From assembly GCA_039937575.1 (NCBI GenBank), contig JBDTGE010000056.1, positions 1 to 25,605 on the forward strand: DNA of 25,605 nucleotides, read 5' to 3'. Both the position numbers and the translations under genes were made by a program. Under the pieces are notes generated by a model. That model saw nothing but the letters and a program-made list of their open reading frames with translations, did no database searches and had not been told where the DNA came from. Shown here one piece after another: positions 1 through 19,407 of this stretch; the first letter of the stretch is position 1, and every line of letters starts with the position of its first letter. The stretch comes from Jatrophihabitantaceae bacterium. GTDB taxonomy: Bacteria > Actinomycetota > Actinomycetes > Mycobacteriales > Jatrophihabitantaceae.

Positions 1-2890
1 ATTCCTGGTACTGGATCTGAGTCTGCCAGTTCTGTCCGTCCTGACCGATCAGGCTGTTGCCGCCGTGATACGAGACCGCGATCTGCGGTGTGCCGAGCAC
101 GCCGGCCGACACGAAGTTGGCGCTGAACTGGCTCGCGCTGGTATCCAGAGTAGGCACCGGGATGCTCACCGACCCGGCCGAGGAGTGCGAGGGGTTGCCG
201 CCGAAGTAGGCCGGAGATCGTCTCGTGGAGCCGTCCTCGACCAGTTGGACGGTTAGCCGGCAGCCGCCGTTGTAGTTGGCGCGCGCGATCGGGAAGCTCA
301 GGCTGGCCGCGGCGGGGTCGAAGTTGGACTGGTTCAGATCCAGGTGGGTGTTGCCGCAGTCGAGGCCGCTGTTGGTCAGGTCGAACGTCTCACCGCGCGC
401 GTCCGCGCTGCTCAGACCGCCGATCTTGACGCTCAGGGTGCCGTTCGACGCGTCGGTCGGTACGAAACTCGCGTCGACGGCGAGCGTCGGCCAGTTGGCG
501 ACCGCGGCGTCGACGGGGGCGAGCGGCAGCGGCACCGATGCGGTCGGGTGCTTGGGCGGGCTGACGGTGACCCGCACCGAGTAGGACTGGCCAGGTTCGA
601 TACCGCCGAGGGACACGCTGGTGGCACTGGTCGGGCCCTTGGTCGCGACGGTCGAGTTGCCGGACATGAGCTGGTAGGTGAGCTGACCGCCCACGCCACC
701 CAGAGCGACGTTCTGATCGCCGGTGAAGGACACGGTCACGTTCGTGCTGCTCGTGCCTTGAACCCCCGTCGCCGGCGGAGTGCTGGCCACGACGTGGATG
801 TTGCCCGGGGTCGGGCGGGCCCAGCTGTAGGCGCACGCGCTGGCGGCCGAGACCGTCCCGGTCGTGCCCTGAACGCCCAGGCCGGCGACCTGGAAGCCCA
901 GACCGCGACCGAGCAGAGTGGGATTGCCCTTGTAGACCATGGAGAAGCTGTGCGTCGTCGGGTCGCCGACGACCTGTGCGTTCGCGGGCGCGTTGACCAG
1001 GCCGCCCGCGTTGTCGCACAGCTGGGGGATGACCGTCCAGTTGGCCGCCGGGACGCACCCGTTCTGCACGCCGCCGCACGAGTTCCACGTCACGGTCCAG
1101 TTGCCCTGATCGTCCGGAACCGCGCGCACGTTGGTCGGGGCGGCCGGCCCCTCGATGCTGGTGCGGACCGGCAGCGCCGCCGACGGCGTGCCCGCGCCGT
1201 TGATGTACGCGGTGACCACGATGCTGTACTGCGTGTCCGGGAACAGCCCGACCAGGTTCACGCCGGTCTGGCCCTGCACGGTGACGGTCTGGGGTGGCGG
1301 GGGCGCGTTGCCGCTCAGCAGCCTGACGGTCACGGTGTAGGTCGACGGGGCGCAGTCCTGCCGGTCCAGCAGCGGGTAGGTCCACTGCAGCTGCACCGAG
1401 CGTGAGCCGCGGTCGACGAGCGCGACGGTGGGGATATGCGGGATCTGCTTGACGGTCTGGCAGTCGATCTTGTCGGTGACCTGCTGCGCGGGATCGACGC
1501 GCGTCTTCGGCGGCCCCTTCGTCGGGTTCTTCGACGGGTTGGCGTGCAGGTTGGCTAGCGCGGCGGCGGCGCCGTTCGCGGTAGCGTCGACGGCTGCGTC
1601 CTTGCGGTTGACGACCGGTTTGCGGCTCCCGTCGGTGAAGACGGTGACGGACTGCAGCCGCGCTCGCGAGTTGAAGATGACCCGGGCCCCGTTGGCGATC
1701 ACCTGGGTCTGGGAGAAGTCCGAGGTCTCACCGTCGATGATCGGGTACGTGCCGACGTCCGGGACGGACGAGGCGACGGCGCCCTCGTCGATCCGCCACA
1801 GCGCGCCGCTCTTGGTGTCGGCCGTGTACAGCGACCCGTTGCTCTGCGCCGGGTCGGCGAGCGGAGCGGTGGCGTCGATGCCCTTGAGTTGCTGCACGCC
1901 CGCGCGGCCCGTGCCGTCGACCGGTGTCCGCACCACGGTCCAGCCGGCGGACGAGTGGTACAGGAAGGCGAAGCCGCCCTGCTGGCTGGTCACCGGCAGG
2001 ATCGAGTCGACGTCGGACGGGAGGTTGACCGACACGGTGTGCGAACCGCCCGTGGGCTCGAAGAGCTCGATCGCGGTGGCCGACGCGGCCGCGACGACGT
2101 CGCCGCCCGATCCGTCCGTCTTGGCCGTGCTCACGCTTATCGCCGACTGCCCCTTCACCGAACCGTGATCGGTCACCGTCAGGCCGACGCCCGGGTTGCT
2201 CCCCCTGGGCACCGTCAACTGGCGGATGGTGCGGGAGTTGCCACTGCCGACCAGCATCCACAGATCGCTGTTGGCGGTGACCGTCGACCGGCTGACGTCC
2301 TGCACGGTGTCGGTCATGCCGATCGACGCGCGAGGCCGCACGGCCCCGCCGCCGATCGCCGAGGTCACCGTCGACAGGCTGACCAGGTACACCGACGTAT
2401 CGGACGCACCGGTGCGAACGATGTACGCCGACCCGCCTGAGGCCAGCCCGATCGAGGTTGTCGTCTCGGATGTCGTGCCCACCGACACGCCCCCGCCGGG
2501 CTTGGCGACGATGCCGCTGCCGTCGACCATGTTGAACTCACCGGTCAGCGGGTCCAGCAGGAGGGTCCCGCCGGCCAGCGGGACGACGTCGACGTCGCTC
2601 GGCTGCTTGGCGTTGACCTGCTGGTAGGCGTCCGGCAGCCGGACCGCGGGCCGGCCGCTGGCCAGGTCGATGGAGACCGGAGCGGTGTTGTCGTTGATGA
2701 ACACCGAGCCGTAGAACAGGTCGAACGCGCGGGCCTTGCTCGGTTTGACGGTGAATGAGGCGACGGCGATCGCGGCCGCGACCAGGACCAGGGCGCTGAC
2801 CAGGGCGACCGCCTGGCGCCGGCTGGGCGTGCTGGAGGTGAGCGGCGTGGCGGCGGGGCGGAAGGCAGCCTGCTGCCGTCGTCCAGCCAC
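1..2890 (-). CDS. Large membrane-anchored/secreted fibronectin type III domain protein, 3' end outside window (>=963 aa)
   Basis: My minus-strand translation is open from GTG 2890 (GGAGG 7 nt upstream) to base 2. N-terminal hydrophobic segment AVALVSALVLVAAAIAVASF; FN3-like segments (SVQLQWTYP...VGLFPDTQYSIVVTAY; PAAPTNVRAVPDDQGNWTVTWN; LGGIEPGQSYSVRVTV). Missing from the ORF track, presumably because no stop lies in the window. Confidence 0.85.
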   Translation of the reverse strand, partial: MAGRRQQAAFRPAATPLTSSTPSRRQAVALVSALVLVAAAIAVASFTVKPSKARAFDLFYGSVFINDNTAPVSIDLASGRPAVRLPDAYQQVNAKQPSDVDVVPLAGGTLLLDPLTGEFNMVDGSGIVAKPGGGVSVGTTSETTTSIGLASGGSAYIVRTGASDTSVYLVSLSTVTSAIGGGAVRPRASIGMTDTVQDVSRSTVTANSDLWMLVGSGNSRTIRQLTVPRGSNPGVGLTVTDHGSVKGQSAISVSTAKTDGSGGDVVAAASATAIELFEPTGGSHTVSVNLPSDVDSILPVTSQQGGFAFLYHSSAGWTVVRTPVDGTGRAGVQQLKGIDATAPLADPAQSNGSLYTADTKSGALWRIDEGAVASSVPDVGTYPIIDGETSDFSQTQVIANGARVIFNSRARLQSVTVFTDGSRKPVVNRKDAAVDATANGAAAALANLHANPSKNPTKGPPKTRVDPAQQVTDKIDCQTVKQIPHIPTVALVDRGSRSVQLQWTYPLLDRQDCAPSTYTVTVRLLSGNAPPPPQTVTVQGQTGVNLVGLFPDTQYSIVVTAYINGAGTPSAALPVRTSIEGPAAPTNVRAVPDDQGNWTVTWNSCGGVQNGCVPAANWTVIPQLCDNAGGLVNAPANAQVVGDPTTHSFSMVYKGNPTLLGRGLGFQVAGLGVQGTTGTVSAASACAYSWARPTPGNIHVVASTPPATGVQGTSSTNVTVSFTGDQNVALGGVGGQLTYQLMSGNSTVATKGPTSATSVSLGGIEPGQSYSVRVTVSPPKHPTASVPLPLAPVDAAVANWPTLAVDASFVPTDASNGTLSVKIGGLSSADARGETFDLTNSGLDCGNTHLDLNQSNFDPAAASLSFPIARANYNGGCRLTVQLVEDGSTRRSPAYFGGNPSHSSAGSVSIPVPTLDTSASQFSANFVSAGVLGTPQIAVSYHGGNSLIGQDGQNWQTQIQYQE

Positions 2891-6904: not shown

Positions 6905-7474
6905 TCAGCCGCGGACGATCGGCTCGCCCCGCAGCCGGACGCCGTGCGCGCGCAGGTCGGCCAGGGCCGAGGCGACGGTCGTCGCCGCAACCCCGGCGGT
7001 GAGCTCGAGCCGGACCGTGATCGTGAACCCGGCCGCGGCCGCGTCGAGAGCGGTGGCTCGCACACAGTGGTCGGTCGCGATGCCGAGCACCTCGACCGTG
7101 TCGACGTGACGCGCGCGCAGCCAGTCGCCCAGCCCGACCCCGTCCGAGTCGCCCTCGAATCCGGAGTAGGCGGCGGCGTGCTCGCCCTTGTCGAAGACGG
7201 CCTCGAGGTGGGTGCGGTCCAGCTCGGGGTGCAGCTCGACCCCGCTCGTGCCGACGACACAGTGCACCGGCCACGAGTCGGTGAAGTCCGGCGCGGCCGA
7301 GAAGTGCGCACCGGGGTCGATGTGGTGATCGCGCGTCGCGACCGCGTGGTCGTACCCACCGGCGGCCAGGCGGGCGCTGATCGCGCGGGCGACGTCGGTC
7401 CCGCCCCCGACGGCCAGGGAACCGCCCTCGCAGAAGTCGTTCTGGACGTCCACCACGATCACCGCGCTTCTCAT
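6905..7474 (-). CDS. pncA: Nicotinamidase/pyrazinamidase (isochorismatase fold)
   Basis: VVDVQNDFCEGGSL, DHHIDPGAHFS, WPVHC, FDKG, GIATDHCV catalytic and metal motifs; adjacent to pncB. Confidence 0.95.
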   Translation of the reverse strand: MRSAVIVVDVQNDFCEGGSLAVGGGTDVARAISARLAAGGYDHAVATRDHHIDPGAHFSAAPDFTDSWPVHCVVGTSGVELHPELDRTHLEAVFDKGEHAAAYSGFEGDSDGVGLGDWLRARHVDTVEVLGIATDHCVRATALDAAAAGFTITVRLELTAGVAATTVASALADLRAHGVRLRGEPIVRG

Positions 7475-7539
7475 GTGACCCCGTTGCCCTGATCGGCATG
7501 GTGGGCGAAGTGGAGGCGAGTGTTTGCTCCGGTGCTCAC
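7471..7539 (-). repeat. Intergenic mini-ORF element, copy A (MSTGANTRLHFAHHADQGNGVT), stop overlapping the pncA start
   Basis: 54/66 aligned nt identical to 18740..18805 with one 3-nt indel; ends GGTCAC-ATGA; TACGGT 6 nt upstream of its GTG. Confidence 0.75.
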
Positions 7540-7558
7540 GTGATCACCGTAGTCACGC

Positions 7559-8839
7559 TCAGGGGGGCGGGACGAGTCGTGTCGAGATCGCCGGGTCGCC
7601 GCGCGAGAGCTTGAGGCCGTCCCAGGGCAGCGTCACCATGGCCGCCCGCAGGTGATCGCGCGACTGGTCCAACGTCGGCCGGTCGTCGACCGGCCGGCCA
7701 CCACGCATGAGCGGGCGCTGGATCAGCCGCTCGAACTCACCGAGTGGCGGGCGGTCGCCGGCCACCACGATCTCCTCGGTCGCCGTCCCGGTCGGCTTGT
7801 GGGCGCGGATCGCCGTCTTGCGGCCGCCGTGACTCTGCTTGTGTTCCGAGCGCTTGGCCACCGGGCGGCCCTCGACCTCGACCAGCTTGTAGACCAGGCC
7901 GGCCGTGGGAGCGCCGGAGCCGACGACGACCGCGGTTCCCGCCCCGTATGCGTCAACCGGCGCGACCGCGAGGGCCGCGATGGCGAACTCGTCCAGGTCG
8001 CCGCTGACGACGATCCGGGTCGACGTCGCGCCGAGGCGGTCCAGCTGCGCGCGGGCGTGCCGGGCCATGACGCCGAGGTCACCGGAGTCGATGCGCACCG
8101 CCCCGAGCTGCGGTCCCGCGACCTCGACCGCCAGCTCGATGCCGTGCGTGATGTCGTACGTGTCCACCAGCAGCGTCGTGCCCGTCCCGAGCGAGGCGAT
8201 CTGGGCCGCGAACGCGGACCGTTCGTCGTCGTGCAGCAGGGTGAACGCGTGTGCGGCGGTGCCCGTCGTCGGGATGCCGTGGCGCACGCTGGCCGCCAGG
8301 TTGGACGTCGCCGCGAACCCGGCCAGGTAGGCGGCGCGGGCCGAGGCGACGGCCGCCTCCTCGTGCGTGCGGCGAGAGCCCATCTCGATGATCGGGCGCC
8401 CGGCCGCGGCGGTGACCATGCGCGCCGCGGCCGAGGCGATCGCCGAGTCGTGGTTGAGGATCGAGAGCGCCACCGTCTCCAGGATGACGGCCTCGGCGAA
8501 CGTGCCGGACACGGTCAGGATCGGGGAGTGCGGGAAGTACAGCTCGCCCTCGGGGTACCCGTCGACGTCGCCGGTGAACCGGTAGCTCGAGAGGTACTGC
8601 GCGCCGGTATCGTCGATGACATCGCCCTTGCGCAGAAAGGCGATCGTCGCCTCGTCGAACGTGAAATCGGTGATCGCGTCCAGCAGACGCCCGGTCCCGG
8701 CGACGACCCCGAAGCGGCGTCCCTCCGGCAGGCGCCGCGCGAACACCTCGAACACGCACTGCCGTTCGGCCGTCCGGTCGCGCAGCGCGGACCCGAGCAT
8801 CGTCAGCTCGTACCGGTCGGTGAACAGCGCAGTGGTCAT
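7559..8839 (-). CDS. pncB: Nicotinate phosphoribosyltransferase
   Basis: TDRYELTM, EMGSRRTH, GTAAHAF, LVDTYD, VRIDSGDL, VYKLVE motifs; divergent from clpS as with Rv1330c/Rv1331. Confidence 0.95.
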   Translation of the reverse strand: MTTALFTDRYELTMLGSALRDRTAERQCVFEVFARRLPEGRRFGVVAGTGRLLDAITDFTFDEATIAFLRKGDVIDDTGAQYLSSYRFTGDVDGYPEGELYFPHSPILTVSGTFAEAVILETVALSILNHDSAIASAAARMVTAAAGRPIIEMGSRRTHEEAAVASARAAYLAGFAATSNLAASVRHGIPTTGTAAHAFTLLHDDERSAFAAQIASLGTGTTLLVDTYDITHGIELAVEVAGPQLGAVRIDSGDLGVMARHARAQLDRLGATSTRIVVSGDLDEFAIAALAVAPVDAYGAGTAVVVGSGAPTAGLVYKLVEVEGRPVAKRSEHKQSHGGRKTAIRAHKPTGTATEEIVVAGDRPPLGEFERLIQRPLMRGGRPVDDRPTLDQSRDHLRAAMVTLPWDGLKLSRGDPAISTRLVPPP

Positions 8840-17550: not shown

Positions 17551-18020
17551 TCTGCTTGATCGAAGTGGCGCCGCGGCCGATATGCGACCAGATCCCTACC
17601 GCGACGAATCGGTTCCTGCGGCGAACCTACGCGCTGGCGCGGACCGCGGCCGGTACGACGACGGCCCGCCCCGAGCTGATGCTCGAGACGGGCCGCTGCA
17701 ACTATCTTGTGACTACGTTGTGTCGGTCAGTCGTCCTCGTGGGATCTAGTCGTCCCAGGGACCGCGACCGCTGTTGTCATCGTTCACAGCTTTTCTCCTT
17801 TGCATGAATGGACCGTCTACGACGCGCTGAGTCAGCGGAGGCGGGTAAGTCGTCGTACCTGTTCCAGGTCCGTAACGACTTGAATCAGATCAGAGGAAGA
17901 TGACCCTCTGGCAGCCGCAAGGTGGACTGCTGTCAACCACCCTACCGGACGCCGGAGGCAAACTCCGAATCGGGGCCGAGGGCCGCAGCGCTGACAGGCA
18001 CCGTCGCTAGGCTCGTGGGC

Positions 18021-18743
18021 ATGTCACGACCAGACGGCCGCGCGGCCGACCAGCTCCGTTCGATCACGATCACCCGCAACTGGCAGGCCTACGCCGAGGG
18101 GTCGGCGCTGATCGAGTTCGGCGCTACGAAGGTGCTCTGCGCCGCGTCAGTCCAGCAGGGCGTCCCGCGCTGGCGCAAGGGCAGCGGACTGGGTTGGGTC
18201 ACCGCCGAGTACTCGATGCTCCCGCGCGCCACCCTGACCCGCAACGACCGCGAGTCGGTCAAGGGCCGGATCGGCGGCCGCACCCACGAGATCTCCCGGC
18301 TGATCGGCCGGTCGTTGCGCGCGGCCATCGACCTGTCGGCGCTGGGCGAGAACTCCATCTCGATCGACTGCGACGTGCTGCAGGCCGACGGCGGCACCCG
18401 GACCGCTGCGATCACCGGCGCGTACGTCGCGCTCTCGGACGCGGTGTCGTGGCTGCGCGAGAAGGGCGCGCTGGCCCGCCCCGAGCCGCTGATCAACTCG
18501 CTGTCGGCGGTCAGCGTCGGTGTCATCGACGGTCAGCCCCGGCTGGACCTGATGTACGAGGAGGACGTCCGGGCCGAGACCGACATGAACGTCGTCATCA
18601 CCGGCGCGGGGGAGTTCGTCGAGGTCCAGGGCACCGCCGAGGGCGTGCCGTTCCGTCGCGACGAACTCGACGCGCTGCTCGACCTCGCCGTCGGAGGCTG
18701 CGCCGACCTGGCCAAGTTCCAGGAACGGGCTCTCAGCTCGTGA
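18021..18743 (+). CDS. rph: Ribonuclease PH
   Basis: [55 protein letters not shown]; TAGGCT 7 nt upstream of ATG. Confidence 0.97.
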
Positions 18744-18805
18744 GAGCCGGAGTAAACGCTCACCTCCACTTCGCGGACCATGCTGGCCGGGGCAAGGTCA
18801 CATGA
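18740..18805 (+). repeat. Intergenic mini-ORF element, copy B ([21 protein letters not shown]), bridging the rph stop and the rdgB start
   Basis: Its GTG overlaps the rph TGA (GTGA) and its TGA overlaps the rdgB ATG (ATGA); homologous to 7471..7539. Confidence 0.75.
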
Positions 18806-19407
18806 GCCGGATCCTGCTGGCCAGCCGCAACGCCAAGAAGCTGGCCGAGCTGCAGCGCATCCTGGCTCCGGCGCTGCCCGGGCTGGAGGTCGTCGGCCTG
18901 GACGACGTGCCGGCCTACGACGAGGTCCCGGAGTCCGGGGCGACGTTCGCCGACAACGCGCTGATCAAGGCGCGCGAGGGGTTCCGGCACACCGCGATGC
19001 CCACTGTCGCCGACGACTCCGGTCTCGCGGTCGATGCGCTGAACGGCATGCCGGGCGTGCTGTCGGCGCGCTGGGCCGGCGGGCACGGCGACGACGAGGC
19101 GAACCTGCAACTCGTGCTGGCCCAACTTTCGGACACGCCCGACGCCCGCCTGCGCGCCGCTTTCCTGTGCTCGGTGGCCTTCGTCGACGGCGAGGACGAG
19201 TTGGTGGTGGACGGGCGGATGGACGGCCACCTGGTGCGCGAGCCGCGGGGCACGAACGGCTTCGGCTAAGACCCGATCTTCGTCCCCGACGGCTTCGAGG
19301 TCACGAGCGCCGAGCTCGTGTCCGGGCAGAAGGACGAGATCAGCCACCGCGGCCAGGCGCTGCGGGCGCTCGTCCCGCACCTGCTCGAGCGCTCCACGAC
19401 CTCTTGA
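18802..19407 (+). pseudogene. rdgB: dITP/XTP pyrophosphatase (HAM1 family) with an in-frame TAA at 19267-19269
   Basis: SRNAKK, NALIKAR, ADDSGL, PGVLSARW, then GFG*DPIF...KDEISHRGQAL...TGA 19405-19407 in the same frame; the stop replaces the Tyr of GFGYDP. Confidence 0.92.

Follow-up and report, generated by a model that had tools for sequence, protein, structure and literature searches.

A dispersed, MIRU-like repeat that bridges into gene starts in Jatrophihabitantaceae: an apparently undescribed sequence family of a known kind

What kind of element stands, in almost the same form, directly in front of two genes such as pncA and rdgB in one actinobacterial contig? The window analysed here is the whole stretch of 25,605 nucleotides that makes up contig C56 of a Jatrophihabitantaceae MAG (hereafter G000; 1.56 Mb in 200 contigs, 50% complete). 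An earlier note, made from the sequence alone, had drawn attention to two look-alike stretches in it (copies A and B, Table 1), both GTG-started ORFs of 21-22 aa with 12 identical residues and an ATGA overlap with pncA or rdgB, and all of this was confirmed. In a global alignment of the two copies, 55 of the 66 bases of copy B are identical in copy A, one more than the 54 that had been counted, with the single 3-nt gap that had also been described. The stop of copy A overlaps the pncA ATG at 7474..7472, while the pncB TGA (7561..7559) lies 19 nt upstream of the copy, which therefore has no upstream-stop overlap. Copy B is joined at both ends, its GTG overlapping the rph TGA (GTGA) and its TGA the rdgB ATG (ATGA). 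The mini-ORF peptides are VSTGANTRLHFAHHADQGNGVT (22 aa) for copy A and one of 21 aa for copy B.

Table 1. Positions of the two repeat copies and of the neighbouring features in the window
Feature	Position	Strand	Description
Repeat copy A	7471..7539	minus	22-codon mini-ORF, GTG 7539..7537, TGA 7473..7471
Copy A, conserved 5' module	~7540..7496	minus	
Copy A, variable 3' module	~7495..7470	minus	
TACGGT, -10-like box	7546..7551	minus	6 nt upstream of the copy A GTG
pncA (isochorismatase/nicotinamidase family)	6905..7474	minus	PF00857, E = 8e-24
pncB (nicotinate phosphoribosyltransferase, NAPRTase)	7559..8839	minus	gene upstream of copy A
Repeat copy B	18740..18805	plus	21-codon mini-ORF
rph (RNase PH)	17922..18743	plus	gene upstream of copy B
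rdgB (Ham1 family)	18802..19269	plus	gene downstream of copy B

The likeness of the two copies is far beyond chance. Their similarity has a BLAST E of 6.5e-12 within the genome, and the best ungapped 45-mer match elsewhere in the window reached 26/45 against 37/45 for copy B. Within the family described below copy B is the closest relative of copy A and vice versa, and both have CCAC in place of CCGC in the core and an identical 3' end. The remark that neither gene has a visible Shine-Dalgarno (SD) was roughly right: there is no GGAGG before pncA or rdgB in copies A and B, but their last 15 nt pair weakly with the canonical anti-SD, at -8.1 and -8.6 kcal/mol (the canonical sequence was assumed in all the SD estimates; the 16S 3' end is absent from the assembly). 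Where copy A meets its upstream flank (7530..7549), there is a 20-nt near-palindrome centred on CACGTG, made from CGGTGATCACGT and ACGTGAGCACCG, and another copy of the same genome, on contig C93, has a TACGGTGATC lead-in ahead of its GTG as copy A does.

An iterated nhmmer search of G000 retrieved 19 copies at E < 1e-3, a lower bound given the half-complete assembly, and a fuzzy search added a divergent subfamily of four further copies, two of them in tandem. Copies are 66-69 nt long and follow one plan, RTGA(G/C), then ~45 well conserved nt with the core GGAGTRAACGCTCACCTCCGCTTCGCGG, then ~20 variable nt that usually contain an SD-like run (AAGGTGG or GGAGG), then RTGA(G/C) again. The divergent subfamily, missed by the profile at E < 1e-3, has the core ACCGGAAGCAAGCTNCTCAC with the length and the RTGA ends unchanged, and was found in G000 at C52 (two tandem units with a period of 65, minus strand), C169:1106-1174 (minus strand) and C182, and also at L102 in G001, a genome of the same genus. 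An anti-SD-like CACCTCC, identical to the canonical 16S rRNA 3' end, is present in the conserved core of most copies (18763..18769 on the plus strand in copy B; CGCCTCC at 7513..7507 on the minus strand in copy A). The idea of an anti-SD mimic that sequesters the element's own SD-like stretch was rejected, as the predicted pairing amounted to 1.9 bp against 1.2 bp in shuffled sequences (p = 0.73).

The placement of the copies is exact. In 18 of the 19 copies of G000 the 3' RTGA coincides with the start codon of an ORF that is on the same strand and 112 aa or longer, in 10 of the 19 the 5' end falls on the stop of a long upstream ORF, and all the copies are co-directional with their genes. The nineteenth copy is decayed and is located just upstream of a gene that we take, from its first residues as read from the sequence, to be RecO-like. 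The 18 downstream genes are functionally unrelated and comprise trpA, an FAD-linked oxidase, an Nramp transporter, rdgB, ftsQ, a family-A polymerase-like gene, a zincin peptidase, pncA, an SDR, ksgA, a DUF3817 gene, two ABC permeases, holB and four unknowns. The dispersed repeat with a mini-ORF bridging to unrelated gene starts, as proposed in the note, was thus borne out by searches of the genome and its relatives, with at least 19 + 4 copies in G000.

The upstream side of the element is less uniform. In a pooled set of 58 near-full copies from four genomes, 35 are intercistronic (5' RTGA on the upstream stop), 7 have a TANNNT 5-8 nt before the RTG, 4 are SD-led, 11 fit none of these contexts (some of them lie on a TGATG overlap) and the last lacks a start codon in the usual position. 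By our estimate from base composition, only ~0.5 of the 23 non-intercistronic copies would be expected to have TANNNT at that distance, against the 7 observed. The feature common to the insertion contexts is the start codon and not the operon junction. Over the 16 nt before the gene start the SD-like complementarity was -8.9 kcal/mol, compared with -5.6 kcal/mol in shuffled sequences, again with the canonical anti-SD assumed.

The history of these sites could be followed at the orthologous junctions of G001 and of other genera of the family. Empty sites were found at the five loci compared (pncA, rdgB, trpA, ftsQ and ksgA, 5/5). At the rph-rdgB junction G001, G016 and G004 have a plain GTGA overlap, G018 a TTGA and G012 a TGATG, the trpB-trpA junction is an element-free GTGA or ATGA in G001, G132 and G016, and the ftsQ and ksgA junctions were element-free in every relative examined. 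Copy A is missing from the pncB-pncA junction of G001, G016, G018 and G012, and in the first three of these genomes pncA starts with GTG or ATG 6-7 nt after a TACGGT or TACCGT. These element-free junctions indicate that copy B entered a stop/start overlap and copy A a leaderless-type start codon. The TACGGT that precedes copy A, which we located at 7551..7546, would be the former leaderless-type promoter geometry of pncA, now in front of the mini-ORF; the reading of this box as leaderless geometry, already made in the note, agrees both with the element-free relatives and with the 7 of 23 copies preceded by TANNNT.

The two ends of the element also bear a short direct repeat. When the 5' and 3' RTGAN of 50 copies were compared, they agreed at R in 34 copies, where 25.7 were expected by chance (p = 0.02), and at the base that follows TGA in 36, where 23.7 were expected (p < 0.0002), with no agreement over chance in the flanks beyond RTGAN in the same 50 copies. 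A target duplication of 4-5 nt would give this pattern, to which subfamily structure may contribute in part. The only sequencing runs with this DNA came from soil and the rhizosphere; they gave fragmentary DNA contigs at low depth and no RNA, and no joint among them skips the element.

What has been preserved in the element is the frame. The mini-ORF is intact and in phase with the gene in 46 of 55 pooled copies; the other nine include two that stop one codon early (TGATG), two that stop 5-8 nt before the gene start, one fused in frame and four out of frame. Where the length of a copy varies, it does so by a multiple of 3 in 11 of 16 cases (binomial p ~0.004 by our arithmetic, a significance that is overstated because the script that pairs starts and stops prefers in-frame pairs). 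Internal stops interrupt the mini-ORF frame in 5 of 49 copies, and the two alternative frames in 35 and 14 of them. Column variability at codon positions 1, 2 and 3 was 0.56, 0.72 and 0.72 bits, without the third-position excess of coding-type constraint, and the codons GGA, GCT and ACT, rare in high-GC DNA, are conserved as nucleotides. The intact frame, the missing codon-position pattern and the retention of rare codons together indicate that the frame is constrained and the peptide is not, and selection on the peptide was rejected for want of a codon-position signature. The mini-ORFs should not be mistaken for conserved small proteins in annotation.

These data bear on the role that the note had suggested for the element, a leader peptide or attenuator common to a regulon of nucleotide and cofactor housekeeping genes. 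Such a role would suit a mini-ORF placed directly before pncA and rdgB, and the peptide start M-x-T-G-V-N-x-H-L-R-F-A does recur across copies. Against this, the genes downstream extend to trpA, the Nramp transporter, ftsQ, ksgA, holB, the ABC permeases, the SDR and the metallopeptidase, the copies are recent insertions and vary without a codon-position pattern, and neither alternative hairpins nor a terminator were found in them. Furthermore, the rare A/T-ending codons (GGA, GCT) are kept as nucleotides, pointing to recent copying rather than to selection on the peptide. A shared regulatory or leader-peptide role is already largely refuted, and we consider it extremely improbable.

A structured RNA, or a REP-like element acting on mRNA stability, processing or termination with the open frame as an incidental feature, fares hardly better. 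There are short GC-rich self-complementary bits in the element, such as the CCGC-TTC-GCGG of the core and a weak 3' hairpin, but RNAalifold gave no consensus structure, the mean MFE z-score was -0.52 with folds that vary among copies, and three hand-picked candidate hairpins showed no covariation beyond that of shuffles. Terminal inverted repeats were not found either. At gathering score Rfam matched only two tRNAs in the window, and 7400..7620 was empty even at E up to 1. In addition, a structured RNA would not be expected to keep strict phase with the genes on both sides or to favour lengths in multiples of 3, and it is therefore a very unlikely main identity for the element.

We think it probable that the copies belong to a mobile, non-autonomous repeat, ~69 nt long and with the build of a mycobacterial MIRU, that would spread by transposition and be tolerated through a termination-reinitiation relay in its mini-ORF. 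Insertion would occur at an RTGAN motif whose RTG is the start codon of a gene, and this start codon could overlap the preceding stop, follow a Shine-Dalgarno or be the start of a leaderless transcript. After the insertion the old start, often still on the upstream stop, would open a mini-ORF of 21-22 codons through the element, and the TGA of the mini-ORF would overlap the new RTG start of the gene. Ribosomes coming from the upstream gene, or loaded at the old start, would translate the mini-ORF and, after termination at its stop, move back 4 nt to reinitiate, perhaps assisted by the weak SD-like stretch in the 3' part of the element. The expression of the gene would be largely preserved, and with it the insertion tolerated. 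Selection against insertions that break the chain of the relay would in turn explain the orientation, the phase and the conservation of the frame. The frame is broken in roughly a tenth of the copies, which counts against the relay. As for the machinery, the analysis brought no mobilising enzyme to light; Y1/HUH transposases (IS200/IS605 or RAYT) were found in no element-carrying genome, with PF01797 in only 3 of the 121 genomes of the family, and mobilisation by an enzyme of this type was rejected since the gene is missing from every element-bearing genome.

Two features are not so easily explained by tolerance. Selection alone does not obviously explain why nearly all copies are placed on start codons, since RTGAN sites in neutral intergenic DNA should be several-fold more abundant. 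In addition, the 5' 45 nt are far better conserved across genera than the 3' part, and the relay model alone does not account for this difference. Active targeting would be compatible with both the near-exclusive start-codon placement and the conserved 5' module, and we put forward tentatively, as a possibility with perhaps a minority chance of being correct, that the element is actively targeted to start codons (stop-overlapping, SD-led or leaderless) by mobilisation machinery that reads the conserved 45-nt 5' module. If true, this would represent a class of mobile elements that home to start codons, in place of random insertion filtered by selection, and the bursty spread in culturable Jatrophihabitans would offer a handle on how MIRU-type repeats move. 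To our knowledge, no explanation of MIRU movement is given in the literature cited here.

The same module could be seen in another way, as a DNA-level site bound by a recombinase, a nucleoid protein or a regulator as the main role of the element, with the relay frame as the price paid for carrying it. The 5' module with its core GGAGTRAACGCTCACCTCCGCTTCGCGG is indeed nearly invariant across genera, third codon positions included, while the 3' half varies freely. Dyad symmetry of the operator type was not found, however, and recent amplification of master copies would also give conservation, so a binding site as the main role seems to us improbable, if a little less so than a structured RNA. 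This reading complements the MIRU-like relay repeat that we prefer, since such a site could be the signal for mobilisation.

The distribution of the family was studied with a sequence-only model (R1). It was found in 25 of 121 Jatrophihabitantaceae genomes and in 12 of 42 genera, with 1 to at least 42 copies per genome, and R1 matches were present in 6 of the 31 nearest genomes. The count of 25 includes one unpublished genome, G043, whose sequence is not used here, and G694, a genome of limited access, contributed nothing. Members of genus g11 (Jatrophihabitans) and of genus g18 carry from 4 to 42 copies. There were 17 copies in G001 and at least 42 in G132, and the copy numbers differ widely inside genera, going from 0 to more than 40 among close relatives. 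The element is patchily distributed and has spread in bursts. Outside the family, R1 was run on 139 genomes from 18 families of the order (11 from Mycobacteriaceae and 128 from the 17 others) and found no copies and only single weak partial matches, which are ordinary GC-rich stretches without RTGA ends and were taken as chance. In an exact-pattern scan of species genomes, all the matches came from Jatrophihabitans and from Jatrophihabitantaceae MAGs, apart from one MAG with the label 'Pseudonocardiales bacterium', and no match for the element was found in known plasmids. That MAG is G132 (JAVHVB01, loci L028/L032), the genome with most copies, and in the genome set used here it groups with the family of the window genome; the order label given by the submitter looks outdated or wrong.

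Some copies are old, for example the one at the L5-S14 junction of a ribosomal-protein operon, which is found at the same site in two genera. At the L16-L29 junction of G001, likewise within a ribosomal-protein operon, there are three tandem units with a period of 65 and chained mini-ORFs, which adds to the two tandem units of contig C52 in G000. In-frame internal tandem duplications of 39 nt, restarting at GCTCACC, were seen in L122 and L129 of G132 and in L029/L083 of Jatrophihabitans sp., indicating that arrays grow within the element as well as by whole units.

Copies of this type raise the possibility of a domesticated tuning device that sets the translation ratio of the neighbouring genes or gates the downstream gene, with the tandem copy number as a dial. 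Copy number has already been proposed as a dial for some MIRU-VNTR loci. The shared L5-S14 site and the three-copy array at L16-L29 lie in operons in which stoichiometry matters, and the mini-ORF frame is maintained. A reported link between MIRU-VNTR length and fpg1 expression (PMC2734929) also counts in favour of tuning. On the other side, the five loci compared are all empty in the sister species and in other genera, close relatives have from none to more than 40 copies, the downstream genes share nothing, and a few old copies retained are also expected of neutral insertions. We find tuning unlikely as the general explanation, and continue to favour the tolerated mobile repeat described above.

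The closest known counterpart of this repeat is found in mycobacteria. MIRUs are dispersed repeats of 40-100 bp without dyad symmetry (Supply et al. 1997, as described in PMC3184786, PMC4473831 and PMC12548453), with small ORFs that run in the direction of their neighbours and overlap them, tetranucleotide direct repeats at the flanks and insertion at start codons with -4 coupling, often in tandem, and the publications on them give a matching design and rationale (PMC3184786, PMC4473831, PMC12548453). The element is also within 40-100 bp, has tens of copies and no dyad symmetry, and bridges co-oriented ORFs; it shares with MIRUs the insertion at start codons with -4 coupling, the empty and filled sites, the short direct repeats and the tandem arrays. 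By every architectural criterion it is a MIRU, and it fails to be one in sequence relatedness only. We recovered a genuine MIRU through the MIRU-10 forward primer (PMC3558156) in a PE-positive Mycobacterium genome, in which this 53-nt unit has at least 35 dispersed copies. R1 scores it at 2.4 bits (E = 0.6), which is background and actually falls below the background matches in the same 3 kb, so the sequences are unrelated; the note, too, had not recognised the sequence as a MIRU. There are other differences as well. The host family is a different one (the element was found in 0 of 11 Mycobacteriaceae genomes), the element has two parts, a conserved 45-nt 5' module and a variable 3' module, and several of its copies demonstrably took over leaderless-type gene starts. 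The claim that the element is undescribed therefore holds for the sequence family, for which we found neither an Rfam match nor a description in the literature, and does not hold for the kind, as the MIRU architecture was already known. We regard it as an apparently undescribed sequence family of Jatrophihabitantaceae, of the known MIRU-like relay kind.

Other short repeats resemble it less. Like MITEs, the element is short, non-autonomous and dispersed, with flanking direct repeats, empty and filled sites and bursts of copies in single lineages, but it has neither terminal inverted repeats nor a long stem-loop, no related insertion sequence was recognised, and its orientation and phase relative to genes are strict. 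With the REP/BIME-RAYT system it shares short GC-rich repeats between genes of one transcription unit; unlike REPs, which have no phased ORF, it lacks a palindromic hairpin, and the Y1 genes of the family belong to three genomes of which none bears the element. The REP2 repeats of Neisseria supply a promoter, a ribosome-binding site and a start codon, and mark a co-regulated gene set (PMC3184786). Both repeats bring a ribosome-binding site and a start codon to downstream genes, although REP2 is not a stop-to-start bridging mini-ORF and the genes downstream of our element are unrelated. Finally, synthetic bicistronic designs use short leader ORFs as translational couplers (cited in PMC12548453), in which a gene receives its ribosomes from a short ORF whose end lies on the gene's start codon, as is proposed here for the element; those are engineered single cassettes, in contrast to natural dispersed repeats.

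The MIRU design is thus not peculiar to mycobacteria. An unrelated sequence family built in this way has expanded in bursts within a different actinobacterial family, where it has also reached ribosomal-protein operons and leaderless genes. Gene callers will misplace the starts of the genes concerned or miss the coupling. For typing purposes, the insertion and VNTR polymorphism provides ready strain markers for soil Jatrophihabitantaceae. The repeats are also natural test cases of termination-reinitiation, including reinitiation after a leaderless mini-ORF.

Some further observations were made in the window genome and its relatives. The rdgB gene downstream of copy B is interrupted by an in-frame TAA (19267..19269, plus strand) at the position of the Tyr in the GFGYDP motif of the relatives, and its homology to the RdgB of G001 (83% identity) continues in frame past this TAA to ~19398; the TAA is either a nonsense mutation, which would make a pseudogene, or a sequencing error. 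A genome-wide control scan for bridging mini-ORFs was noisy in high-GC DNA without real gene calls, and it nonetheless exposed both the divergent subfamily and a second small family. The latter consists of 69-nt bridging mini-ORFs at C45:712-780 and C149:7296-7364 (both on the minus strand), which start with GTGAGCGAGCGGGCGAGCG, have a GGAGG near the 3' end and run with a GTGA onto the next ORF. They may represent a second, low-copy relay family in G000. At the pncA start of G004 (L075 ~880-1115, minus strand), the site that copy A has in the window, there are four tandem copies of a different 32-nt unit, which starts with GTGAGGACCGAGCG. Their mini-ORFs are chained via GTGA overlaps and the array closes in ATGAG on the pncA start, indicating that a second, unrelated relay repeat is found on the same target as copy A.
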